Made by a program: the position numbers and the translations under genes
In this document: one piece after another, positions 7,866 to 23,633 of the stretch
How the letters are laid out: each line of letters begins with the position of its first letter
Position numbering within the stretch: position 1 is the stretch's first letter
Notes under the pieces: generated by a model
The model's input: only the letters and a program-made list of their open reading frames with translations
The model's database searches: none
What the model was told of the DNA's origin: nothing
Origin: an uncultured Desulfurococcales archaeon
GTDB taxonomy: Archaea > Thermoproteota > Thermoprotei_A > Sulfolobales > CAZFJX01
Assembly (NCBI GenBank): GCA_964519505.1
Contig: CAZFJX010000005.1
Coordinates: 20,743 to 84,742, forward strand
Direction: 5' to 3'
Length of the DNA stretch: 64,000 nt

Positions 7866-8620
7866 GCTACTGAGTATGGGCAGAAGTACCCGATGTTTAA
7901 GAATTCCTTAAACGCTCTCTTAAGGATGGTATAAGCACCTTTAGCTGAAACACCATATATCACCCCTACCTTACCTTCTTTAAATACTTCATTAATGATG
8001 CCGTAAATGGTTTTATTGACTATAGCACTACCTGTTATCAATATAATGTCAACATATTTAATTAACTCATTATTCTTGAAGCCGTCAATAATCCTTACCC
8101 CATACTTTACTTTACCAATAACGTCTTTATTCAAATCAGTAACGTACACGTTACGGAACCTACTTACTAATGCCTTAACGTGACCTGGGTGGTAGCCTAT
8201 GTGAAGAATACTTACGTTACTACCGTAACTTCTTAGTAAGTAATCAGCTAATTCCACACCACATAACTCAGGTTCCTTACCTTTACAATGTGTGCCCCCA
8301 TCTATAATACCTAACATAGTTAGTAACGCGTTAAGGGTAGCAAAAAATATGCCTCTCCACCCGATATTACCTAGGTCAAGGTCATTAACTAACCTACTTA
8401 AAGTACTCTTGTAACTTAGTGGGTAAGGAGTGAATGCATGACCTTTAAAACCATTAATTTCACACTCAATGAGTACTTCAGGACCCCTAATTAAGGCATA
8501 CTCGTCCGACGGTAAGTTAAGCTCCTTACCTAACCTAGACCTACAGATAATTGACTTTCTAAGTAAGTCCCTCTTAACTAGTAACTCCTTAAACGAATTA
8601 AGTAAGTACTCATCATACAT
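7832..8620 (-). CDS. DUF364-like Rossmann-fold protein (putative metal-chelation domain family)
   Basis: 262 aa. ...ILHIGYHPGHVKALVSRFRNVYVTDLNKD...KYVDIILITGSAIVNKTIYGII resembles the DUF364 C-terminal motif (xITGstlvNxT). It is last in the same-strand ABC operon, 4 nt from the ATPase gene. Confidence 0.5.
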   Translation of the reverse strand: MYDEYLLNSFKELLVKRDLLRKSIICRSRLGKELNLPSDEYALIRGPEVLIECEINGFKGHAFTPYPLSYKSTLSRLVNDLDLGNIGWRGIFFATLNALLTMLGIIDGGTHCKGKEPELCGVELADYLLRSYGSNVSILHIGYHPGHVKALVSRFRNVYVTDLNKDVIGKVKYGVRIIDGFKNNELIKYVDIILITGSAIVNKTIYGIINEVFKEGKVGVIYGVSAKGAYTILKRAFKEFLNIGYFCPYSVAQWPSSRTRKA

Positions 8621-8624
8621 AGAC

Positions 8625-9665
8625 CTACACCACGATCCTTAAATACCTAATAGGTAGCTTAACGTAAACTAAATCACCACTCCTTAAGCTTAAAGACTCT
8701 GGAGTGTACACCTTCAACTCTAGGCCATTTAATGATACCAAAACCTCGTTATGTTCTGTACATGACTTAATCACTAAAGCCTTAAACGTGTTCACCTTAG
8801 TGTATGGTGGTTCCTTAGATAGAACAACTTTATTTGGGGGTATGACCACGAGTACCTCATCACCTACCTTAAGAGGCCCCTCAGTAGGGGCCATAAGTAA
8901 TAACCCTCTACACTTAACCTTAACTAAGCCCTCATGACCTAAAGAACCAACAACACATCTAAACACGTTTAACTCATGAAGTACCTTAGAAATAACGTTG
9001 ATGACGTCCCTTAATCTACCTATACCAATTAATGAGCCGTTATTAAGTACGGCTATTTTTGAACCAAGTTCCTCAGCCTCACTTATGTCGTGAGTAACGA
9101 AAAGCATAGTTATACGTAACTTACTATGGAGTTTCTTAATCTCAGATATTAACTGGTACTTCATACTTGACTGGATACTGCTGAATGGTTCATCAAGAAG
9201 CAGTATCTTTGGTTTTATAGCTAAAGCCCTAGCGATAGCGACCCTCTGCCTCTCACCACCACTTAAAGTTCTTGGGTATCTTCTACGTAGGTGATTAAGC
9301 TCAAGTAACTCAAGTACCTCATTGGTTCTCTCCTCAATAGCGTCCTTAGGTAACCCCCTGGCCCTAAGCCCGTAAGCAACGTTTTCCTCAACAGTCATGT
9401 GTGGGAATAAAGCCAGGTTTTGGGGCACATAACCAACACCTCTTCTCTCAGGCGGTATGTGGTCTACGGGCACATCGTCGAAAAGAACACTGCCTTCATA
9501 CTTAACTAAGCCGGCAATAACCTTAAGTAGCGTAGTCTTACCAGCACCGTTAGGGCCTAAAACACATAGTAACTCACCATTACTTACCCTAAGGTTAATG
9601 TTCTTAAGGACGAAGTTCCTAACATTCCTTAACTCTATTGAAGGCATTACCCCCTCAACCCCCAC
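8625..9665 (-). CDS. ABC transporter ATP-binding protein with a C-terminal TOBE/Mop-like domain
   Basis: 346 aa. Walker A GPNGAGKTTLLKVIAG, signature LSGGERQRVAIARAL, Walker B ILLLDEPFS, H-loop VTHD. The ~110-aa beta-rich C-terminal tail is typical of ModC/WtpC/CysA-type ATPases. Confidence 0.85.
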   Translation of the reverse strand: MGVEGVMPSIELRNVRNFVLKNINLRVSNGELLCVLGPNGAGKTTLLKVIAGLVKYEGSVLFDDVPVDHIPPERRGVGYVPQNLALFPHMTVEENVAYGLRARGLPKDAIEERTNEVLELLELNHLRRRYPRTLSGGERQRVAIARALAIKPKILLLDEPFSSIQSSMKYQLISEIKKLHSKLRITMLFVTHDISEAEELGSKIAVLNNGSLIGIGRLRDVINVISKVLHELNVFRCVVGSLGHEGLVKVKCRGLLLMAPTEGPLKVGDEVLVVIPPNKVVLSKEPPYTKVNTFKALVIKSCTEHNEVLVSLNGLELKVYTPESLSLRSGDLVYVKLPIRYLRIVV

Positions 9666-10420
9666 CTCCTTAATACGCTAAGCTCTAACTTCTCGAAAAG
9701 TAAATGGAAGAGATAAGTCGAGACAGATAACACAAGTAACGCAGCAATAAGCACATCAACCCTTAAAGTACTTTGAGCAACTATCATTAGGTACCCAAGA
9801 CCTGAAGACATAACCAGCATCTCAGCAACGAAACATGTTTTCCAAGCCATAACAGCCTCTATCTTTAATGCTGAAAATATGGATGGAAGTGCTTGAGGTA
9901 ACATAATTGTGAATATGACCTTGAAGGTACTGGCACCTAAGGTCTTAGCAACACCTATCATCTCAGGGTCAACAGACCTCATACCGCTAATGGTGTTATA
10001 TATGACGGGGATTGAGGAACATATAAAAACGGCCGTTATAGGTAAGAACTCATTAATGCCGACCCACACTATAAGTAAAGGTATTAACGCAACCGTAGGT
10101 GTTACAGCTAAGAAAGCTAGTATCGGGTAAAACACATCCCTAACCAAGTCCTTTAACGATAGAGCAATCCCCACAAAAAGACCTACTAAAGTCCCTAACG
10201 TAAAACCTATTAAAACCCTAACTAAGGTCCTGACATACTCATTAATAAGGGCACCGGATACAATTAAGTGAATTAAGGTCATGCCTACTTTAGATGGTGG
10301 TGGGAAGAGATACGTAGGTACAACACCGATGGAGGGAACGAGCTCCCATAGAGCACAAATTACAAGAACCGTAATAAGAACTAATAAGGCCCTTACTAAA
10401 CCCCCCTTAATCGGCCTCAC
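9647..10420 (-). CDS. ABC transporter permease (binding-protein-dependent, NitT/TauT-like)
   Basis: 257 aa with ~6 TM helices. EAA-like loop: AKTLGASTFKVIFTIMLPQALPSIF. Overlaps both neighbours (19 and 14 nt), which suggests translational coupling. Confidence 0.85.
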   Translation of the reverse strand: MRPIKGGLVRALLVLITVLVICALWELVPSIGVVPTYLFPPPSKVGMTLIHLIVSGALINEYVRTLVRVLIGFTLGTLVGLFVGIALSLKDLVRDVFYPILAFLAVTPTVALIPLLIVWVGINEFLPITAVFICSSIPVIYNTISGMRSVDPEMIGVAKTLGASTFKVIFTIMLPQALPSIFSALKIEAVMAWKTCFVAEMLVMSSGLGYLMIVAQSTLRVDVLIAALLVLSVSTYLFHLLFEKLELSVLRRWGLRG

Positions 10421-11369
10421 CTAATACCTTCTTGAGGTAAGTTAAATCAACGACGTCTTCAGCCTTAACACCCTCATTAATAACCCCATACTTAACCAGT
10501 AGGTTAATTAATTTCTGAATTTCATCCTTATCGATAACGTAGGTATATCTTAAGTTCTTCATGGATCTAAGCATAACGTCATAGGGCACGTTGAGTCTCT
10601 TAGCAACTATTCGTGCTGACTCATTAAGATTCTTATTAATGTACTTAGTAGACTTCACAGTCACCTTAATAAGCTTTAAGACTATATCTGGATGCCCCTT
10701 AAGGAAGTCTTCCCTAACGACTAAAGCACTGCCAGGCATGTTGGGCCATATGTCTTGACTCCTTATAAGTACCCTCATACCCTTAGACTCAGCTAGTGAG
10801 ACATAATGCTCAGGTAGTGATGCAGCATCTATCTGACCAGTCAGCAAGGCGTTTAAGGACATAAATGGAGGCATCTTCTTAATCTCTACATCACTTAAGT
10901 TATACATATCGATAACCATCTTAAGCAGTAACCACGTAGGACTCCCGGGACCTGAGGAAGCCACTACCTTACCACTTAGTTCACGTACATCACTTATTCC
11001 TGGGCGGGCGACTATGGCGTAACCGTGCAGATGCGTCATGGCTAAGATCTTAATGGGGGTTCCTCTAGAGTAAATAAGTATTGCTGGAGATGTACACACC
11101 CAAGCAACAGGTATATCTCCTTTAGCCATCGCTGTAGCTAGCTCAAGACCCGTCCTAAAAACCACTAACTTACTGACATTAAGACCTTCCTCCTTAAACC
11201 ACCCCTTATCTAAAGCAACCCAAGCGGCCGCTGAATGATCGTTAAACTCAACAGCCATACCTACATTCGTTAACTCCCCCTTAATGACCATGTTAATGTA
11301 GGTTAGAGAAGCCGCTAATAGGGTCACTAATAAAACCGTAAGCATTAGTACTGAGGTGCTTACCCTCAT
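10407..11369 (-). CDS. ABC substrate-binding protein, NMT1/THI5-like (NitT/TauT family), N-terminal membrane anchor
   Basis: 320 aa with an N-terminal TM. AAAWVALDKGWFKEEGLNV...TGLELATAMAKGDIPVAWV... fits the COG0715-type binding-protein pattern. Confidence 0.7.
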   Translation of the reverse strand: MRVSTSVLMLTVLLVTLLAASLTYINMVIKGELTNVGMAVEFNDHSAAAWVALDKGWFKEEGLNVSKLVVFRTGLELATAMAKGDIPVAWVCTSPAILIYSRGTPIKILAMTHLHGYAIVARPGISDVRELSGKVVASSGPGSPTWLLLKMVIDMYNLSDVEIKKMPPFMSLNALLTGQIDAASLPEHYVSLAESKGMRVLIRSQDIWPNMPGSALVVREDFLKGHPDIVLKLIKVTVKSTKYINKNLNESARIVAKRLNVPYDVMLRSMKNLRYTYVIDKDEIQKLINLLVKYGVINEGVKAEDVVDLTYLKKVLGEAD

Positions 11370-11484
11370 TAGAATCCCTGTAAATGTAAGTAGTTACACT
11401 TAATAAGTATTATGATTTATGAATGTAAACAAATCCATTAACATATTGAGTTTAGATAGAAAAACATTATATTTGTTAACTAGT

Positions 11485-13542
11485 TTAGAGTTTAAACGCT
11501 ATTGTTTTAACGTAATTTAAGTCCTCAGTAACTATCTTTATTGATTCCTCACCTATTAGGTATAGGTACTCGCCTATGTATATAGTTCTCTCAACGAACC
11601 TATGCTCAACAAATCCCTTAAGCACTAACTTACCGTCACCGACCTTAATCACCATAACACCCTCACCACTACCGAGGCGTACCGGGAATGTGAAGTAGCC
11701 TTTCTCGTAGTTGATCATGAATGCCTTATGATCCCTAAATAGTGGTGACCATACAGCGCCTTCTTTAGCTATCTTAGCTACCTCGGTAATGTTTGTGGGG
11801 TCAGTTATGTTGAAGAGAGATACCTTAATGCCACGTACGATACCTGAGTCTTCGTAGGTGTCATAGCCAATACCTATTAAGTACTTATTCTTACCGAAGT
11901 TAATGGGGTGCAGATACTCTGAGTAACCAGGTATTTTTAGGTAGCCAAGTACCTTCGGGTTCTTAGGATCTGATAAGTCAATACCGAATAGTGGGTCAAC
12001 CCTCCTATAAGTCACTAAATACATTAAATCACCTAAATACCTAGCAGCATAGATTCTCTCACCAGGAGCTAACCCCTCTAACTCACCTACAATCTCTAAG
12101 TTCTCGTCAAGTACGTAAACATTATTTAATGTCTTAAACTCAACAACCCCTCCCTCCTTCACGGAGTACTTATGTACAGTTGTTGCTACCCTGAAGTAGC
12201 CGTTATACTCATCCATTGAGAATTGGTCAAGTACATAACCAGGGACAGACCCCTTAGCTACAGCGACTATGTCGAGGCCGTTTAAGCTGAACTTATATAT
12301 TACGGTTTTCTCATGATAGTACTCCTCATATATGTATGCTGTCTTATTAATAAATTCCTTCATAAACTTCTCCCTCTCCTTAAAGTCTAGCGAGTTAAAC
12401 CAATCGCTAATTACCTCCATAACCAACTTACGCTTAAGTCTATCAGAGATATCTAGTGACTTAATCTTAATTATGTCCTCCTTAATATCTTCAGGAACTA
12501 GCTGTAGTAGCACCTTCTCCAACTCATCATATATGACCTCAGGACTTACCCAAGACCTTGACAGTATGTATAGGTTACTTAGTGATACATAGACATTAGC
12601 TGAGTTACCTAACATGAATACCTGCCACGAGTAATCACCAGAGTCTACATCCACGGCTAGTATTATCGTGAATACGTAACCATAGTCCTTCTCAAAATAC
12701 TTAATGTCCGTAGGGTCTACCTTAACATCATTTATAACTGGTAGTACTACCTCATTCTCAACATATATTACGGGCATTGTGGTAATTAAGTATAGGTACT
12801 TACCGATCATTCTTGAGGTCATGTAGTGACCTGTAATGTTTATATCCTTAATTAGCTTAGGCTCGCACCTATCAGATATGTCATATATCAATATAGTCGT
12901 GTTTGAAACCTTACGGTATGGTGGTGGCACCATCCCCTTACTAGCTTCAGGTATTGCTAGAAGTCCGCGATATGATGAAGCTATAATGACTAGTTTATCA
13001 CCATATACGTATAGCCCGTAGACCATCCTATGTAAATCGATCTCACTAACTACTTCAGAATCCTCGCCTGGATACGCCTTAACTATGTATACCTTAGCGT
13101 GACCTACAGGAGCTACATATATGTACTTACCATCAGTCTTAACTATGTCTGCTTCATCAACACCAGCTACCTGAACATTCGTTTTTGAGTAACTTACTTC
13201 GCCCTTCGCTATGGATGCTGGTCTTGGGGTTGCTGTTGGTGTGACTAAGGCTAATGCTCGGGATTCCGCATACTCACCAATAACCCCAAAGACTATCGCT
13301 GGAATACCTATATCGGCTGTGAATATGTAAGGACTTGACTCCTTAGACTTAACGAAATTAACTAACTCCTCATAACTACTGAATGACTTAACCTCAACTA
13401 GTTGCTTAGGTGTCGTGGTTGTTACTGGAACCCCCTCACCCACGGGTGGTATCTTAACTATGTTGAGAGTTATAGCCAGGATTATTAGGGTGACAACAAG
13501 TACCACAGACATTAACGCCTTCCTTGACCTCACATCCAGCAC
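11485..13542 (-). CDS. Secreted/membrane-anchored beta-propeller domain protein (PF09826-like)
   Basis: 685 aa with an N-terminal TM. Hallmark SKTNVQVAGVDEADIVKTDGKYIYV, plus a C-terminal YLHPI...GIGYD...GIKVSLFNITDP propeller pattern. Confidence 0.7.
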   Translation of the reverse strand: MLDVRSRKALMSVVLVVTLIILAITLNIVKIPPVGEGVPVTTTTPKQLVEVKSFSSYEELVNFVKSKESSPYIFTADIGIPAIVFGVIGEYAESRALALVTPTATPRPASIAKGEVSYSKTNVQVAGVDEADIVKTDGKYIYVAPVGHAKVYIVKAYPGEDSEVVSEIDLHRMVYGLYVYGDKLVIIASSYRGLLAIPEASKGMVPPPYRKVSNTTILIYDISDRCEPKLIKDINITGHYMTSRMIGKYLYLITTMPVIYVENEVVLPVINDVKVDPTDIKYFEKDYGYVFTIILAVDVDSGDYSWQVFMLGNSANVYVSLSNLYILSRSWVSPEVIYDELEKVLLQLVPEDIKEDIIKIKSLDISDRLKRKLVMEVISDWFNSLDFKEREKFMKEFINKTAYIYEEYYHEKTVIYKFSLNGLDIVAVAKGSVPGYVLDQFSMDEYNGYFRVATTVHKYSVKEGGVVEFKTLNNVYVLDENLEIVGELEGLAPGERIYAARYLGDLMYLVTYRRVDPLFGIDLSDPKNPKVLGYLKIPGYSEYLHPINFGKNKYLIGIGYDTYEDSGIVRGIKVSLFNITDPTNITEVAKIAKEGAVWSPLFRDHKAFMINYEKGYFTFPVRLGSGEGVMVIKVGDGKLVLKGFVEHRFVERTIYIGEYLYLIGEESIKIVTEDLNYVKTIAFKL

Positions 13543-13726
13543 CGTGGAAACTATCGTGAACCCCCTATATAGAACTACACATTAGAACATGAAGCTAAAG
13601 AGACTCGAACACCCAGTCCTTAATCAAGGACTAAACACTGAATCAACGTGCCTCAAGGTAGTTATTAGAAGGTACTACAGTCACTTATAAAAGGTTCAAC
13701 CAAGCAATTTAGGTATTGGAGCTAAA

Positions 13727-14887
13727 GTGAGGTACGGAATAAGGAGCTTAATAAGTGCTTCGATACCCATCATAAGCTTACTCATACTCACGCTCACAAC
13801 ATCCCTTACTGCCTCGGCAAGCAGTAACTATGTTTTCTATATTTACGGTAGCTTAAAGTGTGGTTCCTGTGCTTCATTAGTTAATTTCTTTAAGGATGAA
13901 GGACTTAACTACTACTTCTGTAGTTTTGAAAATATGAGTTGCGCGACTAGGTTCTCATCACTTGTTGAGGGTTACGGAGTCCCTGACATAACACCGCTTA
14001 CGTTGGTCATAGTTAATGACTCGGTAGTAGCTATAGTTGGTGGTGACGTGCATAATAAGGATTTCTGGCTTGGACTACTCAGTAAGAACTACGGTGGTAA
14101 GATACCTATCTACCTATTCACTATGGGTAAGGGATTTATCGAGGGTGTTGACTCTAAGGTATTTGCTGCTAAGTACGCTCCTGAGGTTGTTAAGGTAAGT
14201 AACGTTACTGAGACTACTAATGGGTTTAAGGGTGATTTATGGGCTGTTGTTGCTGTTATGTTTGGCTTAGCACTTAGTGATGCTATAAATCCGTGTGCTA
14301 CATACGTATATATCTTACTACTAGTCGCTTCAGCCTTAGTAGCTGTTAAGAGGGGTAGTAAGGGGTTAATAATGGCCACAGGGACCGCATTCATATGTGC
14401 TGTGTACGTAGGCTACTACATGTTAGGTGTTGGTCTACTTTCAGTACTTACCTACGTACCTACATGGGTGCTTAGCGCCATAGCTATAGGCTTCGGACTT
14501 TGGGTGATTATCACAGGCATATTTAGGAAGTCAAGGATCGTTGCTAAGAGCTCTATAATAAACTTAATTAGGAGGGCTAAGACCTCAGTAATAATGTCGG
14601 TCGTACTAGGATTCGTAGTAACCTTCACATTACTCCCATGCTCTTCAGGCCCCTACGTTGTCTTCGCCGGACTTATATCTAGGTTCAACCTAGTCACAGC
14701 ATTAACCTTATTAGCACTATATAACCTACTCTTCATACTCCCACTAGTAGTGATTATGTTCATAATAACTACAACTATGAAGTACAGAAGGGTTCAAGAA
14801 TTCATAGTCACCTATGACAGACCCCTATCCGTTGTTGCTGGGATACTCCTAATAGGCGTAGGTATATACGTTCTCCTCCTTCATTAA
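13727..14887 (+). CDS. Fusion of an extracytoplasmic thioredoxin/glutaredoxin-like domain (CGSC) with a DsbD/CcdA-type thiol-disulfide transporter core
   Basis: 386 aa. Signal/TM, then YIYGSLKCGSCASLVNFF (CxxC). The membrane core carries the two conserved Cys motifs LSDAINPCATYVYILLL and TLLPCSSGPYVVF. Confidence 0.7.
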   Translation: MRYGIRSLISASIPIISLLILTLTTSLTASASSNYVFYIYGSLKCGSCASLVNFFKDEGLNYYFCSFENMSCATRFSSLVEGYGVPDITPLTLVIVNDSVVAIVGGDVHNKDFWLGLLSKNYGGKIPIYLFTMGKGFIEGVDSKVFAAKYAPEVVKVSNVTETTNGFKGDLWAVVAVMFGLALSDAINPCATYVYILLLVASALVAVKRGSKGLIMATGTAFICAVYVGYYMLGVGLLSVLTYVPTWVLSAIAIGFGLWVIITGIFRKSRIVAKSSIINLIRRAKTSVIMSVVLGFVVTFTLLPCSSGPYVVFAGLISRFNLVTALTLLALYNLLFILPLVVIMFIITTTMKYRRVQEFIVTYDRPLSVVAGILLIGVGIYVLLLH

Positions 14888-14975
14888 GCGTTTTACCTAA
14901 GCCTACACTCTGAATCTGAGAGAGTTACCTCAGTATTTAAATTCTTAGATTAGAGTTTAGTGGGGGCGTAAAGCC

Positions 14976-15914
14976 ATGAGTGAAGTAGTGATTGAGGTTA
15001 GGGATGTAGTTAAGAGATACGGTGATGTAGTGGCTGTTGCCGGGGTATCTTTTGATGTAGTCAAGAGTGAGGTATTTGGCCTACTAGGACCTAACGGTGC
15101 TGGTAAAACAACCTTACTCAACGTTATTGTGGGTGTTTTAAGACCAGATGAGGGTAGGGTAACCATTAAGGGTATTGACGTAGTCTCAATGCCGTTTAAG
15201 GTCAAGAAGTTAATAGGTTTCTTACCTCAAGAAAACCCCCTATATCCATGGTTAACGGGGGAGGAGAATTTAGTGCTTTACGCAAGCATATACGGCATAC
15301 CCAGGGATGAGGCTAAGAGGAGGGCTAGGGAGCTACTTGAGCTATTTGGTCTTGAGGAAGACGCTAAGAAGAGAGTGAGTAAGTACTCTGGTGGTATGAT
15401 GAGGAAGCTATCATTAGCTACAGCCTTAATACATGATCCTGAGATACTCATTCTTGACGAGCCAACAACGGGTCTAGACCCTAACATGAGGAGGGAGTTT
15501 TGGGGTTATGTAAATGACTTAAGGAGGAAAGGGAAGACAGTAATCCTATCAACACACTACATGGAGGAGGCTGATGTATTATCAAGTAGGGTAGCCATCA
15601 TGGATAAAGGTAAGATACTGGTCCTAGATACACCTGAGAACTTAAAGAAGAGCTTAGGTCCTTACGCATCAATAAACATAGAGTTTAAGGCTATTGATGG
15701 CGAACACGTTGGCGGGTTACTCAAGGAGTTTGCTGAGGGGGGTATAGCGTGTAGAGAGGATGTTTGTAGGGTCTTAGTAAGGAACCCAGACGTAGCCGTT
15801 CCTAAGATAACTAGTAAGCTATACTCTTCGGGTGTAAAGATAGTTAGGTTAAGTGTTGAGGAACCAACCCTTGAGGATGTATTTATTAAACTAACTGGTA
15901 GGAGGTTAGAGTAA
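14976..15914 (+). CDS. ABC-2 type exporter ATP-binding protein
   Basis: 312 aa. GPNGAGKTTLLNVIVG, YSGGMMRKLSLATALI, ILILDEPTTGLD, STHYMEEA. Confidence 0.9.
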   Translation: MSEVVIEVRDVVKRYGDVVAVAGVSFDVVKSEVFGLLGPNGAGKTTLLNVIVGVLRPDEGRVTIKGIDVVSMPFKVKKLIGFLPQENPLYPWLTGEENLVLYASIYGIPRDEAKRRARELLELFGLEEDAKKRVSKYSGGMMRKLSLATALIHDPEILILDEPTTGLDPNMRREFWGYVNDLRRKGKTVILSTHYMEEADVLSSRVAIMDKGKILVLDTPENLKKSLGPYASINIEFKAIDGEHVGGLLKEFAEGGIACREDVCRVLVRNPDVAVPKITSKLYSSGVKIVRLSVEEPTLEDVFIKLTGRRLE

Positions 15915-15915
15915 G

Positions 15916-17181
15916 ATGAATTGGAGGGCAGTATACGCATTACTCGTACGTAACATAAAGAGGGGGTTTAGGCATAAGGACGAGCTATTCTGGATGATAA
16001 TATTCCCAATAATGATGATGTTCCTAGTAGCTTACGTATTCATACCGCCTGAAAGGACTATAATGACTATAGACCTAGGTATAGTTAATTACGATGGTAA
16101 TCCAGCAGGGTTTAATTTTACTGCCCAGGACTTTATGAACATACTTAAGAACGTAACCATCGACGATAAGAAGCTATTTAAAGTAAAGGAATTCAACAGT
16201 ACTGAGGAAGGTCTTAGGGCGTTAAAGAAAGGTGATTTAGACGCCTTACTAGTGATCCCATCAGGATTTACCGTGAACTTAACGTATAGTAAGGCCCACC
16301 TTAAGGTATACATACTTAGTGCTGACCCGATGACTAAGCAAGTAGCTGAAGCAGAACTCATGGGTTTCCTACAGGGATTTGCTTCAAGGACGTCTAAGAT
16401 AAAGTTCCAGATCATGGTTAAGTACATGATGAAATACGTACCTGAGGAGTATAGGGACTACATAGACATATTCATTAAGTATATGGAGGGTATTGTAGAG
16501 CCCGTAAACGTTACTTATGAGACCGTATACCCTGAGAGGATGTATGAGAGAGGACACATAATCGGTTGGTTAGCTATAGGTATGATAGGTATCATGATAA
16601 TGTATAGTGGGTTTTATAGTGGTTCACTAGCCTTAATAAGTGAGAGGGAGGGCGGTACTTTAAGGAGGCTCTTTGCCGCACCAATAACTTACTTCGAGAT
16701 CTATATAACCGTAGTACTTGACGTACTAATATCGACAGCTATAACGGCTGCTATAGTTCTAACCATGAGCATATTCCTCCTAGGGGCTAAATTCACATGG
16801 ATATCTGGCCTTGACTTCGCAGTGATAGTGGCCCTATACATACTGGCAGCGTTATTCACGGTATCTATAGGCATACTGATATCTTTAGTATCTAAGAGCG
16901 TGAGGGGTGCCGCGGCCATAGCTAATGGCTTAGCATTCCCACTGATGTTCCTTACAGGTATATGGATACCTAAGTTCATGCTTCCACCAGCACTCCACGT
17001 AATCGCTGATTACTTCCCATTAACAAAGATAATTGACGGTATTAGAGACCTTGTAATTTACGGTAAGTCAATTACTGAGGTAATGACGTACCTACCGATA
17101 CCTGTAGTAGTGACCTTAGTACTAACGGCTATAGGTGTGCTGATATTTAGGAGAAGCGTTGAGAAGATGCTAGTTGGGTGA
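15916..17181 (+). CDS. ABC-2 family transporter permease
   Basis: 421 aa. N-terminal TM, large external loop, then 5 C-terminal TMs. Starts 2 nt after the ATPase stop. Confidence 0.85.
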   Translation: MNWRAVYALLVRNIKRGFRHKDELFWMIIFPIMMMFLVAYVFIPPERTIMTIDLGIVNYDGNPAGFNFTAQDFMNILKNVTIDDKKLFKVKEFNSTEEGLRALKKGDLDALLVIPSGFTVNLTYSKAHLKVYILSADPMTKQVAEAELMGFLQGFASRTSKIKFQIMVKYMMKYVPEEYRDYIDIFIKYMEGIVEPVNVTYETVYPERMYERGHIIGWLAIGMIGIMIMYSGFYSGSLALISEREGGTLRRLFAAPITYFEIYITVVLDVLISTAITAAIVLTMSIFLLGAKFTWISGLDFAVIVALYILAALFTVSIGILISLVSKSVRGAAAIANGLAFPLMFLTGIWIPKFMLPPALHVIADYFPLTKIIDGIRDLVIYGKSITEVMTYLPIPVVVTLVLTAIGVLIFRRSVEKMLVG

Positions 17182-17190
17182 TAAGCAATA

Positions 17191-18486
17191 GTGGGTAAGA
17201 TTAGTAAACCAATAAGGTTTTTCTTAACAGTAGTCCTTATAACGGTAATTATGTCATCACTTATACATAACGTTTACATAGCCAATTCCGAGAGAGTTAT
17301 CTTGAGTAACATACCTTATTACCCTATGCATCACCCTACATGCGCCATAACAGCTCTCCAAATGATATTTTCGTACTATGGCTATAACTACAGCCATACC
17401 CTACTCATGGTAATTAGCGGTTGGGGTTTCGGTATATATTACTCAAGTAAGTATAGGTTCGGGTTTGGATGCTCACCTTATCCCGTGCTAGCGGTTATCT
17501 TTACGGCTAAGCAACTAGGGTTTAACGCCACCTACAGAACATTTAGTGATTTTAATAATGCCCTTACGTGGGTTAAAGAGAACTTAAGAAGAGGTGACCC
17601 TGTATTCTTAGAGATTAAGGGGCATTCGGTAGTAGCTGTTGGCTTTGATGATGGGGAAGGCGCTCTATACGTACATGACCCATCAGGAGGTATGTCATCG
17701 TGGGGGTTCCTTAGTGAAGGGCGTGCTCTAGGATTAAATGTCAGTTGGTATGTTGAAGAAATAACTAAGAGGGAAGGGTTTGGTGCCTTCGTTAAGGTAC
17801 CTTACGAGAGGATGAAAGAGTTATGGAGGTGGTATAGGGGTTATGAGGCAGTACTTATTAAGCCTGTTAATCCAGTAACTGACTTAACTAAGATTAAGTG
17901 GGTCGATATATTCGATAGGGTGGTCACTAATACCTTATACGGCCTAGAATACCCTGAGGATGAAGGAATTAATGCGTGGCTTAAGCTAGCTAATGATTTA
18001 AGAGGTAATTACTCAAGGGATTACTTAATTATTGTGAAGGACTACATATTAGGTATCGCCTGGAGGAATAGGGATGATGTGGCATCTTTCTTCACGGGGT
18101 TATCAACAGTGCTAAATATTTCTGAGTTAAGGGGTGTTTCATGGTATTTTAGGATGGCGGCTAGTGAGTATGGGCTAGCCTACTCATTACTGGGTTACGC
18201 AATACTCCACTATAACGACACAGACGTAAGTAACTACGTCATTAGGGCAGCTAAGTATATCGAGGAGGGTGCCCAATACGAGAAGAAAGCAGCGGAACTA
18301 CTATCTTCTAAGGTAAGTAAGTCCCTTAGGGCAAGGGTGAGTAAGGTAAGTACATCAACAACACCCACAACCCAGGGTATTACCCCACTAAATGCCATGT
18401 ATATATTGGCGGGCTTCGTCTTAGGCCTCGCTATAGGTGCTGTAGTATTTAAGGTGAAGAAACGTAAGTCATGGAGTAGGCATTAA
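17191..18486 (+). CDS. Membrane-anchored extracellular BtrH_N/C39-like (papain-fold) Cys-His protein with a helical C-terminal domain
   Basis: 431 aa, GTG start, with N- and C-terminal TMs. Candidate catalytic Cys in HHPTCAITALQMIFSYYGYNYSHTLLMVISGWGFGIYY; candidate His in KGHSVVAVGFDDGEGALYVHDP. A Thr-rich stalk (STSTTPTTQGITP) precedes the C-terminal anchor. Confidence 0.6.
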   Translation: MGKISKPIRFFLTVVLITVIMSSLIHNVYIANSERVILSNIPYYPMHHPTCAITALQMIFSYYGYNYSHTLLMVISGWGFGIYYSSKYRFGFGCSPYPVLAVIFTAKQLGFNATYRTFSDFNNALTWVKENLRRGDPVFLEIKGHSVVAVGFDDGEGALYVHDPSGGMSSWGFLSEGRALGLNVSWYVEEITKREGFGAFVKVPYERMKELWRWYRGYEAVLIKPVNPVTDLTKIKWVDIFDRVVTNTLYGLEYPEDEGINAWLKLANDLRGNYSRDYLIIVKDYILGIAWRNRDDVASFFTGLSTVLNISELRGVSWYFRMAASEYGLAYSLLGYAILHYNDTDVSNYVIRAAKYIEEGAQYEKKAAELLSSKVSKSLRARVSKVSTSTTPTTQGITPLNAMYILAGFVLGLAIGAVVFKVKKRKSWSRH

Positions 18487-19670
18487 GTATTTTTAGCTAC
18501 CTTAACCACACCCTCCTTAATTAACTCCTTAATCTCCTCATCACTATACCCTAACTCCTTAAGTATTTCTAAGGTATGCTCACCTAGATCCGGTGGCGGT
18601 AACTCGCTCATTAACCTAACACCATTAACCTTAGCAGGCTCGGCGAGCTGGGGTATCTTACCGAATTTCTTATGGGTTAAGTACCTTAAGATTCCTGAGG
18701 ACTTAATATGCGGATCTTTAAATACCTCATCAACGGTGTAGGCAGGAGCTACAGGGACCCCATATTTCTCAAGTAGCTTAACCCACTCCTCCCTACCCCT
18801 CTTGCTAAATACCTCATTAAGTATTTTGATAAGTACCTCCCTATTCCTAACCCTATCAGGGTTTGTTCTAAACCTAGGGTCTTCAGCTAACCCCTTAAGA
18901 CCTAAGGCATCACATAAGGACCTCCATAACCTATCGTTAGCTGCAGCAATAATGAAGTACTTACCTCTAGAGTCCTTAAACGCTTGGTAAGGAACTATTG
19001 AGGGGTGTCCCGAGCCTAACCTCTTAGGTACCTTACCACTCATTAAGTAGATTATGGGTATGTAGACCATAGAGAAAACAGCGGTATCATACATACCCAC
19101 CTCTATATAGGTAGGTCTCCTATTAGCGTATAGCGCTGCCAATACGTGAATAACCGCTGAGTAACCAGTAAGTATATCGAAGAGAGCGAAAGCAACCCTA
19201 ACAGGTGGTGCCCCCTCTTCACCTGTAGACATCATTAAACCACTTAACGCCTGGATAATTATGTCGTAAGCAGGCTTCATCTCGTAAGGTGACCCCCTCC
19301 CAAAACCCTTAATGCTACAGTAAATGAGTTTAGGGTTAAATTTAAGGAGCGTATCGTAATCAACACCTAACTTCTCAGGTACCCCAGGCCTGAAGTTCTC
19401 AATAACTACATCAGACCTACTAGCAAGCTTCCAAACAATTTCTCTACCCTTACTTGACTTAAGGTCTATAACTATAGACCTCTTACCCCTATTTATTGAG
19501 GCAAAGTAAGCACTTAATCCCTTAACTATGGGTGCCCAAGTCCTTGTCTCATCACCGTGAGGGGCTTCAATCTTAATGACATCAGCACCTAAGTCAGCAA
19601 GAACCATAGTAGCGAAAGGACCCGCCAGCGCGTGGCTTAAATCAAGAACCCTAACACCCCTCAACAACAT
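18483..19670 (-). CDS. Family III CoA-transferase (CaiB/BaiF / alpha-methylacyl-CoA racemase family)
   Basis: 395 aa. The N-terminus GVRVLDLSHALAGPFATMVLADLGADVIKIE and ...VVIENFRPG... are classic for the family. Confidence 0.9.
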   Translation of the reverse strand: MLLRGVRVLDLSHALAGPFATMVLADLGADVIKIEAPHGDETRTWAPIVKGLSAYFASINRGKRSIVIDLKSSKGREIVWKLASRSDVVIENFRPGVPEKLGVDYDTLLKFNPKLIYCSIKGFGRGSPYEMKPAYDIIIQALSGLMMSTGEEGAPPVRVAFALFDILTGYSAVIHVLAALYANRRPTYIEVGMYDTAVFSMVYIPIIYLMSGKVPKRLGSGHPSIVPYQAFKDSRGKYFIIAAANDRLWRSLCDALGLKGLAEDPRFRTNPDRVRNREVLIKILNEVFSKRGREEWVKLLEKYGVPVAPAYTVDEVFKDPHIKSSGILRYLTHKKFGKIPQLAEPAKVNGVRLMSELPPPDLGEHTLEILKELGYSDEEIKELIKEGVVKVAKNT

Positions 19671-19864
19671 ACAACAAACACCTAAACAACACTACACCAA
19701 CACCAATAAATAAAGTTAGTTCCTTCACAACATTATCAAAGCTAAAAATATCCCTTTAAGTATATACAACAGTAATGAGTGAATCGCTTTAAGAATTAAG
19801 TATTCTCAATAGTAAGGATGCTTTATTAACCTATTTATAAGTTCAATGCATTCTTTAGCAACAG

Positions 19865-20251
19865 CTAATAGTTCTTCGACATCGCTTTTGCTATACTCCT
19901 ACCGTATCGTGCTTGGATGTACGCCTCCTCTATTTCAATGAGTTGTTTTCTATATTTCCTGATAAAGTCTATTATCTCGTCTTTACCTATTACACTGTGA
20001 AGTTTAGAAAGTAATGTTCTAATACCATGTGCTTCAGGATAATATCCTGTTAGTTTCAGCAGTACTGCCTTCAAATATAGCTGTAAAGACTGTTCAGTAT
20101 GAAAGATAGCTAAGTTATATAGTCCTTCAGCTAAATCTCTTTCAGCTTCCTTAAGAAATTCTAGTGCCCTCTTTATTAGGGTGTTTACTCTTGAGATATG
20201 GCTCATTATTACACCTTTATAGCCTTTATCCTTAAGTTCTCGAAGAACCAT
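19865..20251 (-). CDS. HEPN domain protein (pair 1), 3' end apparently frameshifted
   Basis: 128-aa ORF. ALEFLKEAERDLAEGLYNLAIFHTEQSLQLYLKAVLL...HGIRTLL...EEAYIQARYGR. The expected HEPN C-terminus EYSKSDVEELLAVAKECIELINRLIKHPYY is encoded in another frame at 19898-19806 (see findings). The likely true start is MSHISRV (~20206). Confidence 0.75.
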   Translation of the reverse strand: MVLRELKDKGYKGVIMSHISRVNTLIKRALEFLKEAERDLAEGLYNLAIFHTEQSLQLYLKAVLLKLTGYYPEAHGIRTLLSKLHSVIGKDEIIDFIRKYRKQLIEIEEAYIQARYGRSIAKAMSKNY

Positions 20252-20571
20252 TTACTCTCCTCAATAGTAACTGGATGAAGTTCTACGAGGTTTGGGCCCA
20301 GACTAAGTGCATCCTCAATGAGGATCTTAAGCTCTATGCGTTTCCTATGGTCTTTAGGTATGCTGTCTGAAACCACTAACACATCTAAATCACTTGCCGC
20401 CGTGAACTCACCCCTAACAACACTCCCAAAAACATATACTTCGGCATCAGGAATAATCCGTAACACAACTTCCTTTATTTTCTTAGCTAATTCACGCCAA
20501 TTCTTAAGCATTAAATACCTCCTATACCCATGCTTAAGTAGAGAATCACTCATGAATACCCCACACAGCAT
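20209..20571 (-). CDS. Minimal nucleotidyltransferase (MNT, pol-beta fold), pair 1
   Basis: 120 aa. GSVVRGEFTAASDLDVLVVS motif. Overlaps the downstream HEPN gene. Confidence 0.85.
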   Translation of the reverse strand: MLCGVFMSDSLLKHGYRRYLMLKNWRELAKKIKEVVLRIIPDAEVYVFGSVVRGEFTAASDLDVLVVSDSIPKDHRKRIELKILIEDALSLGPNLVELHPVTIEESKWFFENLRIKAIKV

Positions 20572-20754
20572 CCCTTATGGTTCTAGGTGCTTAATTAAAG
20601 ACATGTTTCGATACCATATATTTTTAATGCTTATAAGCCTAAGTTGGGTTGTCGGTTGGGATACATGATTAACGTACGGTTTGATTTATGTCTCGTTTGT
20701 AGGACGTTAGCGTTGTATGGGTTTTAGTTTTATTCCTTATTCACGTATCTATGC

Positions 20755-22026
20755 ATGGTAGGTGGCATGAGTCGTAAGCTTGGGGTTGCTCTATTGGTTT
20801 TAGTGGCTATTACTGCATGGTCGTCTCTGATCGTTGCTGGGTGTTTCGATATTAAGGATGTAGCGTCTATAGAGGTAGTACTGAATAAGCCTGGAGTCGC
20901 CTATGACTTAAGTGTGCTTGAGTCAAACCCGAAGGTAGTTAAGGTTAAGTATATAGGGTTTAGGGGTGGTGATTACGCATACCTATATAGGTCTCACATA
21001 GATAGACACCTAGTCGTTATAGTATCGCTCCAGGAAGTTCCGCCAGTCACAGGCTACTATTTAGCCATTAGAGTTGAGAGCCCCCTTAAGGAGGTCTACG
21101 TACCAGTAACCATGGTTTCAGTAGAGCTCAGTAATGTTAGTATTAATATTGAGGAATTTATTGAGAGAATTAAAAGAGTTGAGGAACTATACCTAATGAA
21201 GGTTAAGATAGGATATAAACTAACTGGTGAAGATAGATACGTAAGGGCGGTACTTAGGAAGGACTATGAGGGCACTGAGGTCTCTATATTCATTAGCTTA
21301 GTTAGGGGTAAGTTATTCATTAATGCCTACATAAGAGGGGAGGTGGGGAGCGTTAAGTATGAGGAGATTATCAATGAGGTTAAGGAGGTCATTAAATACG
21401 TACTCGAGGACCTATACAATGAGGAATCTCTAAAGGTTAGGGAAAGTACTGAAACTATATACGAACCTATGGTTAATCCCAATAAGATTAGGGAGGCGCT
21501 GATCTACGAACTCTTATGGCTTACTAGGGTAGGCGTTATTAATGGGTTAAGTGAGGGCGATATTAAGGCTATAGGTGAAGTGGCTGAAGTAGGTAATGCC
21601 GGGTGGAATAGTAGGTTAGTCTATTATGAAGGTGAGTGGATACCTTACTATAAGGTCAGCGACGCTTTATTAATCAAGGTTTATGGGGGCTGCAGTTGGG
21701 AGTATCCACCAGAGAAGATACCTCAAGAACCACCAGAGCCTACCGAGACAGTGATGACTACGTTAATACCTCAGGAGACAACCACTTACGTACACCCACA
21801 CACTACAGTACCTACATCAACAATTGAGACACATACGGCTATAGAAACACCCCCCATGCCTACCGAGACGCCTACGATAGCGGCTCATGCAACATCATCA
21901 AAAACGACGGTAACGACGGTCACCATTTCTCCATGGTTAAGTACTTACTTACACATAGCGATAGCTTTAATGATTGCGTTAATAGTCGCAGTAGCTGTAG
22001 CTCTTATATTTAAGGCGTCTAGGTAA
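20755..22026 (+). CDS. Surface protein: N-terminal signal/TM, unknown globular region, Thr/Pro-rich stalk, C-terminal TM anchor
   Basis: 423 aa. MSRKLGVALLVLVAITAW...; stalk PQEPPEPTETVMTTLIPQETTTYVHPHTTVPTSTIETHTAIETPPMPTETPT; anchor HIAIALMIALIVAVAVALIF. Confidence 0.6.
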   Translation: MVGGMSRKLGVALLVLVAITAWSSLIVAGCFDIKDVASIEVVLNKPGVAYDLSVLESNPKVVKVKYIGFRGGDYAYLYRSHIDRHLVVIVSLQEVPPVTGYYLAIRVESPLKEVYVPVTMVSVELSNVSINIEEFIERIKRVEELYLMKVKIGYKLTGEDRYVRAVLRKDYEGTEVSIFISLVRGKLFINAYIRGEVGSVKYEEIINEVKEVIKYVLEDLYNEESLKVRESTETIYEPMVNPNKIREALIYELLWLTRVGVINGLSEGDIKAIGEVAEVGNAGWNSRLVYYEGEWIPYYKVSDALLIKVYGGCSWEYPPEKIPQEPPEPTETVMTTLIPQETTTYVHPHTTVPTSTIETHTAIETPPMPTETPTIAAHATSSKTTVTTVTISPWLSTYLHIAIALMIALIVAVAVALIFKASR

Positions 22027-22864: not shown

Positions 22865-23245
22865 CTATGTGAAGAGACCGTAATCATCAACTATAACTAT
22901 CCTATTTCTTAGTGCTTCTTTCCACCAAGGCTTTGATAAATTCCTCTTAGCTTCTTGTAGTGTCCAGATTTTAACCTCGAAATTCTCTGGTATGAACTTA
23001 GAAATGATGTCATACCTCTTAAGGAAGTCTATGTTGGTGAAGTATTCGGATATGAGTATTACGTCAACATCGCTCCATAAGTTAAAATCCCCTCTAGCAT
23101 AGCTTCCGTAAATAATTAATGTTACTTTACCTATTACTTTCCTTATAACGTTAGAGAACTCTGTAGCTTCCTTTATTACCTTATCAACTATTGATTTACG
23201 CTTCTTAATCACTTCTTCCCATGAACCTACCGACACATTCCTCAA
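22865..23245 (-). CDS. Minimal nucleotidyltransferase (MNT), pair 2
   Basis: 126 aa. GSYARGDFNLWSDVDVILIS. Confidence 0.85.
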   Translation of the reverse strand: MRNVSVGSWEEVIKKRKSIVDKVIKEATEFSNVIRKVIGKVTLIIYGSYARGDFNLWSDVDVILISEYFTNIDFLKRYDIISKFIPENFEVKIWTLQEAKRNLSKPWWKEALRNRIVIVDDYGLFT

Positions 23246-23633
23246 CCCATGAAATCACTTTCTTAACGCACTCCTTAGACCTTAGCGCCTCATTCCTTGT
23301 GAAATATTCATGAGGAGCGCCTTCACTAAACGCGTTTGGATAACGTGGTGGTATATACATTTTATTAAGGTATAGGAGACATTCAAATAACTCGTCGTTT
23401 AACTCTCCACAAACCTCATTCACTTCCTTACTGAGTCTTTTCAGGTCATGTCCGAAGGCTGGTTTGCCTACAGCTCTAAGTAAAGCTTTTAAGGCGTATT
23501 CCGCGGCTTGGTGAGCCTTAAAGCAAGCCCAGTCATAACTACCGAAGTTTATGTCTGCCTCCATGGAGTTTAATGTATGCTTAGCTTGACTTACCCATCT
23601 TCTATATTCGCTAACGTCAATCAGGTACTTCAT
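23205..23633 (-). CDS. HEPN domain protein, pair 2
   Basis: 142 aa. WACFKAHQAAEYALKALLRAVGKPAFGHDLKRL...YIPPRYP. Overlaps the downstream MNT gene by 41 nt. Confidence 0.85.
   Translation of the reverse strand: MKYLIDVSEYRRWVSQAKHTLNSMEADINFGSYDWACFKAHQAAEYALKALLRAVGKPAFGHDLKRLSKEVNEVCGELNDELFECLLYLNKMYIPPRYPNAFSEGAPHEYFTRNEALRSKECVKKVISWVEECVGRFMGRSD

Follow-up and report, generated by a model that had tools for sequence, protein, structure and literature searches.

This report concerns four consecutive genes on the plus strand of a stretch of DNA from an uncultured Desulfurococcales archaeon. The whole stretch of 64,000 nucleotides that was analysed is referred to as the window, and the genes as genes 1 to 4 (Table 1). 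Genes 2 and 3 are an ATP-binding cassette (ABC) exporter of type V, the ABC-2 type. Gene 4 encodes a member of the Pfam family Peptidase_C39_2 and is not a canonical C39 bacteriocin-processing domain. What is new here is a rare clade of secreted, tethered proteins with the BtrH fold whose genes, in one archaeal lineage, appear to share an operon with those of an ABC-2 exporter; what stands out most at the locus is the predicted outward topology of the enzyme. Genes 2 to 4 are tentatively read as a module in which export is coupled to processing, or to transacylation, at the cell surface. Gene 1, which encodes a thioredoxin-like domain fused to a membrane core of the CcdA/DsbD type, is probably a separately transcribed, general-purpose neighbour and no dedicated component of the system. 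A preliminary description of this DNA had joined all four genes into one system. The four plus-strand open reading frames (ORFs) that it had called are all present where it had placed them, and the identities given to their products are borne out by profile, alignment and structure-model matches.

The assignment of gene 4 rests on profiles, on conserved residues and on a structure model. With Peptidase_C39_2 (PF13529) gene 4 scores 39.7 bits, where 24 are required (E 9e-10; the alignment covers positions 2-142 of the 143 in the profile), and with BtrH_N it reaches 33.7 bits, where the cut-off is 29.7. The canonical Peptidase_C39 family (PF03412) was missed, at 13.6 bits against a cut-off of 22. 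Word-indexed homologue searches returned 2 proteins with gene 4 and 6 with the family alignment, and an exhaustive HMMER search of 1.84 billion cluster representatives was used instead. At E <= 1e-3 this search found relatives of gene 4 in only 28 clusters. Conservation was read from 23 of these 28 relatives, and related loci were located with a 7-sequence alignment. Profile comparison with Peptidase_C39_2, BtrH_N and DUF4872, the three families named in the preliminary description, placed gene 4 itself in the first two; among the 23 members, Peptidase_C39_2 was matched by all, BtrH_N by 18 and DUF4872 by 5. Three bacterial proteins (L015, L016 and L023) were rejected as members of the family, being generic C39_2 proteins, either SH3 fusions or a bare domain, that lack the second domain.

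The catalytic residues proposed for gene 4 are well conserved. The preliminary description had pointed to a papain-like Cys in PTCAITALQMIFSYYG and a His in GHSVVAVGFDD...VHDP. These motifs were verified at residues 49-64 and 144-164, as was the CGSC motif of gene 1 at residues 45-48, and both the Cys (Cys51) and the His (His145) are conserved in at least 90% of the 23 members. Asp or Asn occupies position 163, next to a Pro164 that hardly varies. Gene 4 is predicted to carry a Cys51-His145-Asp163 triad like that of CtaG. The sole member without the Cys, P0080, has Gly in its place and also lacks the His, which is now Ala, while the two-domain architecture is kept. This joint loss fits residues that act together in catalysis, and P0080 is, judging from its sequence, likely a pseudoenzyme. 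P0080 was found on L034/L035, from sample ERZ27248007 and the metagenome-assembled genome (MAG) GCA_964633255.1; the same sample also yields one copy of the window contig. Another homologue, at the end of contig L022 (8001-8695), aligns in two frames (8001-8330 and 8318-8695), which suggests a frameshift or an assembly error.

An AlphaFold2 model of gene 4 was built from the 23-sequence alignment (pLDDT, the predicted local confidence, 90.5; pTM, the predicted template-modelling score, 0.80) and consists of an alpha/beta papain-like domain and a helical domain. In a Foldseek search of the PDB, the full-length model matched AziU3 (2e-9), CtaG (1e-6) and CcbD (4e-6), with alignments to these proteins that span 357-408 columns at E values of 2e-9 to 1e-4. 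Only the N-terminal half was matched by the C39 domain of ComA (5xe9; 9e-5) and by PCAT1 (2e-4). The family profile searched against the PDB recovered 3erv, a 'putative C39-like peptidase', at 1.3e-11 with the Cys and the His aligned; a single-sequence phmmer search of the PDB with gene 4 found nothing significant. The model and the Foldseek matches agree on a papain-like fold, as had been anticipated. The analogy to C39 leader peptidases that had been drawn with it was overstated: the score for PF03412 is under the cut-off, and the best structural matches are two-domain enzymes of the BtrH/CtaG/CcbD/AziU3 type.

Several features indicate that the enzyme domain of gene 4 is extracellular and tethered to the membrane, the orientation that had been proposed for it. 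The N-terminal hydrophobic helix is preceded by Lys/Arg, and the C-terminal helix (399-424) stands between a Ser/Thr-rich linker and the sequence KVKKRKSWSRH. By the positive-inside rule applied at both ends, the catalytic region would therefore lie outside the cell. Gene 4 contains 6 N-X-S/T sequons against 2.5 expected from its composition, and none are present in the cytoplasmic gene 2 product or in the CoA-transferase encoded next to gene 4. Surface proteins of the Thermoprotei are extensively N-glycosylated, and the sequons speak indirectly for an outward location. The layout of signal and C-terminal anchor is common to all archaeal homologues of gene 4, and the bacterial homologues have an N-terminal signal-like segment without the anchor.

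The identity of the exporter, as an ABC-2 ATPase and permease, is equally supported, with family cut-offs passed by both proteins. Gene 2 was matched by ABC_tran (8.5e-35), carries a C-terminal DrrA1-3_C domain in Pfam, and scores 325.7 bits against a cut-off of 312.45 for the NCBIfam family TIGR01188 (drrA). Its best sequence matches in the PDB are the nucleotide-binding domains of ABCA4, ABCA3 and ABCA1 (1e-86 to 1e-81). Gene 3 was matched by ABC2_membrane_3 (PF12698) at 119.4 bits against a cut-off of 31.6, and over its full length by an ABCG23-like transporter in the PDB (8yzp; E 7.8e-11). Gene 3 stays far below the cut-offs of the permease equivalogs DrrB, NodJ and SagH (TIGR01247, 44.9 against 223; NF038293, 80.7 against 450; TIGR01291, 27.5 against 206), and its match to NF041647, an ABC permease/CPBP fusion, is weak at 41 bits and under the cut-off. 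All 5 of the sequons in gene 3 are located in the loop at residues 47-212, and this extracellular loop is probably glycosylated. The likeness to ABCA- and ABCH-type exporters and the sub-threshold SagH and ABC-permease/CPBP matches may weakly hint at a hydrophobic or lipid-linked cargo.

The order of ATPase, permease and enzyme has been conserved in relatives of the window. It was also found at the P0002 locus, which is 82% identical, and in L012/L018 from Desulfurococcales, with identities of 57, 43 and 39% for the three proteins respectively. The genes of L012/L018 are spaced by an overlap of 4 nt and a gap of 18 nt, and the genes on either side are unlike those of the window. All 60 bootstrap replicates of a neighbour-joining tree group the three ABC-linked proteins of the gene 4 family into one clade. 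The linkage between the ABC-2 genes and gene 4 is real and old, yet limited to one clade. ABC genes are also present in L015; these belong to a housekeeping prfB-ftsE-ftsX cluster and were not counted as linkage.

At the locus itself, genes 1 and 2 are separated by 88 nt, genes 2 and 3 by 1 nt and genes 3 and 4 by 9 nt; the last of these spacings had been given correctly, while the gap between genes 2 and 3 had been put at 2 nt. A CoA-transferase gene runs convergently into gene 4 and overlaps its stop codon, and any operon therefore terminates at gene 4. Identical copies of the locus are carried by several metagenome contigs. The closest named relative in the homologue search was a 'Thermoprotei archaeon' MAG, and related loci came from Desulfurococcales MAGs.

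Table 1. Coordinates of genes 1 to 4 and of the TATA-like elements in the window.
Feature	Coordinates	Strand	Length (aa)	Description
TATA-like element TTATAAAA	13684-13691	+		~36-43 nt upstream of the gene 1 start; read directly in the sequence
Gene 1	13727-14887	+	386	Signal peptide; extracytoplasmic thioredoxin/glutaredoxin-like domain (C45-G-S-C48 plus C65, C72); six-helix CcdA/DsbD-type core (NPC190, LPC305)
TATA-like element TATTTAAAT	14934-14942	+		In the 88-nt gap, ~34-42 nt before the gene 2 ATG; read directly in the sequence
Gene 2	14976-15914	+	312	DrrA/ABCA-like ABC ATPase (ABC-2, type V exporter)
Gene 3	15916-17181	+	421	ABC-2 permease; predicted extracellular loop of ~165 residues (~47-212) between transmembrane helices TM1 and TM2
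Gene 4	17191-18486	+	431	Signal/anchor 6-26; papain-like domain ~35-225 (Cys51, His145, Asp163, predicted triad); helical domain ~237-388; Ser/Thr linker; C-terminal transmembrane helix 399-424; basic tail

Gene 1 belongs to a larger family, for which 72 homologues were found. In a 23-sequence alignment its CxxC motif is conserved in at least 90% of the sequences, and N188-P189-C190 and L303-P304-C305 are invariant. A Pfam scan of the gene 1 protein itself gave no family match. Among the 23 aligned homologues, PF02683 was found in 5, PF13386 in 2 and PF11139 in 9, and the models matched by homologues are Glutaredoxin (PF00462), DsbD_TM, DsbD_2 and SfLAP. The family profile searched against the PDB recovered only the thioredoxin/glutaredoxin domain (glutaredoxin 3ic4, E 0.0017). 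The core helices are visible in an AlphaFold2 model of gene 1 (pLDDT 84). With this model, Foldseek aligned the N-terminal domain to thioredoxins with a probability of 0.99, though at an E value of only ~0.1, and did not recover a CcdA/DsbD membrane structure. All 3 sequons of gene 1 are within the thioredoxin-like N-terminal domain. Because of the motif conservation, the Pfam matches of the family and the profile and Foldseek matches in the PDB, gene 1 is read as a signal-anchored thioredoxin-like domain joined to a CcdA core. The earlier proposal of a CGSC thioredoxin-like domain fused to a CcdA/DsbD core is upheld by the conserved CxxC, the invariant membrane Cys residues and the domains of the homologues, and gene 1 is a genuine extracytoplasmic thiol-disulfide relay.

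A second pair of Cys residues in the thioredoxin-like domain, C65 and C72 (FC...C), is a feature of an archaeal subfamily. It is kept in most of the closer homologues (~32-51% identical) and is lacking in most of the distant ones. This pair may form a structural disulfide. At two loci, L010 (5848-6939) and L032 (4896-5957), the thioredoxin-CcdA homologue has a gene for a helix-turn-helix (HTH)-containing protein of ~355 aa 40-60 nt upstream. The two HTH-containing proteins are homologous (38% identical to each other) and have no counterpart in the window; they may be dedicated regulators.

How might the products of genes 2 to 4 act together? In the tentatively preferred reading, the ABC-2 exporter would move a substrate, probably hydrophobic or peptide-like, to the outer leaflet or the cell surface. 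The gene 4 enzyme would be tethered on the outer face of the membrane as the partner of the exporter, and could be coupled to its cargo. Cys51 would attack an amide or ester bond to give a thioester acyl-enzyme, which would then be resolved either by water (processing) or by an amine or hydroxyl acceptor at the surface (transacylation or transpeptidation). Carrier-protein thioesters are absent outside the cell, and the acyl donor of gene 4 would therefore have to differ from that of its cytoplasmic relatives. The most far-reaching proposal is an extracellular acyl-transfer machine in some Thermoprotei. The membrane-tethered BtrH-fold enzyme would receive a lipid- or peptide-linked substrate from the exporter, form the thioester intermediate outside the cell with its Cys-His-Asp residues, and ligate the acyl group to a surface acceptor in a carrier-protein-independent manner, similar to a sortase or a transglutaminase. 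This proposal is distinctly unlikely to hold in full; if true, it would mean surface modification by a fold known so far only from cytoplasmic natural-product biosynthesis.

Several observations weigh against a coupling of export and surface processing. Genes 2 to 4 (14976-18486) would be one operon by their spacing and synteny, and not by transcripts. No substrate gene or acceptor was identified at the locus. A motif scan of low power found no double-glycine (GG)-type leader among the small intergenic ORFs of the window, in line with the earlier remark that no precursor peptide gene is evident. No ABC-2 gene was found beside the gene 4 homologue in L013, L019, L014/L020 or L036, in L022 (where the upstream side only is visible) or L034 (the short contig with P0080), or in the bacterial loci L024, L026 and L029. 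With ABC-2 neighbours absent in about six archaeal lineages and three bacterial loci, the gene 4 enzyme in general needs no neighbouring transporter. The TM-scores of gene 4 against BtrH-like structures are moderate (0.45 on the query and 0.55-0.60 on the target), and AziU3, a top Foldseek match, has been deposited only as the AziU3/U2 complex.

Alternative explanations differ in which of the four genes they join. The preliminary description had included gene 1: its thioredoxin-CcdA protein would keep the Cys of gene 4 reduced, the ABC-2 transporter would export a peptide, and gene 4 would process it in the manner of a C39 peptidase. The shared strand and adjacency of all four genes speak for this model, as do the truly outward CxxC domain on the CcdA core of gene 1 and the single conserved reactive Cys that gene 4 exposes outside. 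The gap between genes 1 and 2, however, contains both a TTTT run (14891-14894), located after the gene 1 stop, and a TATA-like element. By likeness to known archaeal signals, the oligo-T may act as a terminator, and TTATAAAA and TATTTAAAT as promoters. The orthologous ATPase of L012 is likewise the first gene after a divergent neighbour, and genes 2 to 4 would form a transcription unit separate from gene 1. The thioredoxin-CcdA gene is absent from L012, the other complete operon; in the 4 contexts of its homologues that were examined (L008, L010, L030 and L032), ABC-2 or C39-like genes never adjoin it; and in MAG GCA_964627805.1 the homologues of gene 1 and gene 4 are on separate contigs. The absence of a GG-leader ORF and the low canonical C39 score also count against the model. 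The conserved co-occurrence expected of the four genes was found for genes 2 to 4, kept as a unit in one clade, and not for gene 1. With its own TATA-like element, its absence from the L012 operon and a linkage not conserved elsewhere, the thioredoxin-CcdA protein is no longer counted as part of the system, and the four-gene model has become improbable.

The main rival to coupled export and processing keeps genes 2 to 4 co-transcribed and mechanistically separate. Genes 2 and 3 would be an ABC-2 efflux pump of the general kind, exporting a drug, a lipid or a metabolite, gene 4 would be an independent surface protease, and the two would share regulation only; gene 4 might then serve in the maturation or turnover of envelope proteins or in nutrient acquisition. 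ABC-2 pairs such as those of the DrrAB, NatAB and YbhFSR families are ubiquitous as stand-alone efflux systems, gene 2 passes the DrrA subfamily threshold, and most lineages of the gene 4 family have no neighbouring transporter. Yet a tight three-gene unit has been held at 39-57% identity while every flanking gene changed, which is unusual for unrelated functions, and separate functions are considered unlikely, if less so than any other alternative. By analogy with FtsEX, which controls PcsB, CwlO or EnvC and so provides a precedent for the control of an extracellular Cys-peptidase, the ABC-2 complex might instead switch the tethered enzyme through the gene 3 loop by ATP hydrolysis and not transport its substrate. 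The size of that loop and the presence of a papain-superfamily enzyme at the membrane beside it would suit such mechanotransmission. It is nevertheless very improbable: the fold of gene 3 is that of ABC-2 (type V) permeases and not the FtsX/MacB (type VII) one known for mechanotransmission, and gene 4 homologues in most lineages have no adjacent ABC system. A further alternative is that gene 4 is a non-peptide hydrolase, cleaving glycans or esters on a glycosylated surface, or a non-catalytic binding protein. A methanogen C39-like protein was inactive on double-glycine peptides and weakly active on para-nitrophenyl (pNP)-beta-galactoside, which supports this alternative (PMC13642728), and P0080 has lost both the Cys and the His. 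The glycosidase rate of the methanogen protein was very low, though, and its architecture differs. The Cys-His-Asp/Asn residues of the gene 4 family are kept across distant archaeal and bacterial members, and where the Cys and the His are lost, both go together. This favours thiol catalysis by gene 4 of the window, and a role outside thiol chemistry appears to have little likelihood. Coupled export and surface processing by genes 2 to 4 is thus preferred, on a tentative basis.

Other genes were recorded around the locus and around its homologues. In L014 (7971-10069; MAG GCA_964627805.1), the gene 4 homologue is preceded by a 267-aa polytopic membrane protein without a family match and lies 114 nt ahead of a gene for a CPBP/Rce1-like intramembrane protease. 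This protease and the weak NF041647 match of gene 3 faintly suggest a theme of membrane-proximal processing. The membrane proteins that flank unlinked gene 4 homologues (234 aa in L012, 258 aa in L013 and 267 aa in L014) were compared by phmmer and tblastn and had no ABC-2 or CcdA similarity. In the window, positions 20755-22026 (+) encode a 423-aa secreted protein with a lipobox-like VAGC near its N-terminus, a Thr/Pro-rich linker and a C-terminal transmembrane anchor, for which the precomputed assignment is PF27854 (Heavy_Cys_CGP). The 82%-identical relative (L007/L017) has a 90%-identical copy of this protein beside the CoA-transferase. Two pairs of HEPN and minimal nucleotidyltransferase (NTP_transf_2) genes, typical archaeal toxin-antitoxin-like modules, are located at 19865-20571 (-) and 22865-23633 (-), and similar pairs flank the thioredoxin-CcdA homologue in L030. 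Divergent from gene 1, positions 11485-13542 (-) encode a 685-aa secreted Beta_propel protein (PF09826, E 4e-145); the next minus-strand genes encode the NMT1-type binding protein, permease and ATPase of an ABC importer. None of the Beta_propel and NMT1-type importer genes is conserved beside genes 2 to 4 in L012. The GC content is ~36-45% throughout the window (1-64000), and no tRNA genes (ARAGORN) or Rfam families at the gathering threshold were found across its 64 kb.

The fold shared by BtrH, CtaG and CcbD has only lately been recognised as a class of protease-like ligases. That this fold occurs in a secreted, membrane-anchored clade suggests that a reaction not yet characterised takes place outside the cell, at the envelope of hyperthermophilic archaea, because the anchored proteins could not use carrier-protein thioester chemistry there. 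The apparent operon tie to an ABC-2 exporter in one lineage provides a concrete handle for a search for the substrate. Two cautions for annotation follow from this locus. A 'C39-like' gene next to an ABC transporter need not mean bacteriocin processing, and neighbouring redox genes should not be joined to a system without a check of conserved linkage.

The products of these genes can be compared with several known systems. Gene 1 is similar to the CcdA, DsbD and ScsB relays in the two Cys residues, of the essential type, in its Pro-Cys motifs of TM1 and TM4 and in its N-terminal extracytoplasmic CxxC domain of the thioredoxin/glutaredoxin fold. The gene 1 family differs from these relays in being highly diverged and in the extra Cys pair of its archaeal subfamily, and no cytochrome c maturation genes adjoin it in any context seen. 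The exporter belongs with the DrrAB, ABCA and ABCH systems by the DrrA subfamily of gene 2, the kinship of its nucleotide-binding domain with ABCA proteins and the ABC2_membrane_3 domain of gene 3; the ABCG23-like transporter matched by gene 3 has an extracellular domain. To our knowledge, no exporter in this class is encoded in one operon with an extracellular papain-like partner dedicated to it.

For gene 4, the comparison extends to two groups of C39 proteins. The C39 domains of peptidase-containing ABC transporters (PCAT) and of ABC transporter maturation and secretion (AMS) proteins, such as ComA, PCAT1 and LahT, are similar to gene 4 in the papain-like core, the placement of the Cys and the His, and the genetic tie to an ABC exporter. 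These domains are fused to type I/IV exporters with the ABC_membrane fold, act on the cytoplasmic side and cut peptides with a GG leader. Gene 4, in contrast, is a separate, outward-facing ORF beside an ABC-2 transporter, with no GG-leader gene found in the window. Stand-alone Peptidase_C39_2 proteins such as 3erv are similar in profile score and in the aligned Cys and His. Typical members of that family are single-domain proteins, whereas proteins of the gene 4 family also have a conserved helical domain, and those from archaea are in addition anchored at the C-terminus. C39_2 proteins have been described as single-domain peptidases whose genes are sometimes located near genes for ABC-2 type (teichoic acid) permeases in bacteria (PMC10318531), and a loose association of C39_2 with ABC-2 was therefore already known.

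The closest comparison is with the BtrH-fold enzymes. CtaG, BtrH and AsbE are described as sharing a bipartite architecture, a Cys-His-Asp triad and a ping-pong mechanism through a thioester acyl-enzyme, with the acyl group taken from a carrier protein (PMC12865890). The characterised members of the BtrH/CtaG/AsbE/CcbD type are cytoplasmic, receive the acyl group from thioesters of acyl or peptidyl carrier proteins (ACP/PCP) and act in antibiotic or siderophore pathways (PMC12865890). Gene 4 is similar to them in the spacing of the triad (C11/H128/D144 in CtaG against C51/H145/D163), and two-domain enzymes of the BtrH/CtaG/CcbD/AziU3 type are its best full-length structural matches, ahead of the C39 domains, at a sequence identity of only 9-13% to the solved structures. 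Gene 4 differs from these enzymes in its signal and C-terminal anchor and in having no biosynthetic cluster. Genes for carrier proteins, non-ribosomal peptide synthetases (NRPS) or polyketide synthases (PKS) were absent from the 8 genes scanned with Pfam (10407-22026) and from the called genes within ~10 kb on either side of gene 4 in L001. An extracellular location would exclude the carrier-protein-dependent chemistry of all characterised BtrH-fold enzymes. Apart from their cytoplasmic site, carrier-protein donor and gene cluster, gene 4 appears, by its model, to be closest to the BtrH, CtaG and CcbD transacylases in fold and likely mode of action.

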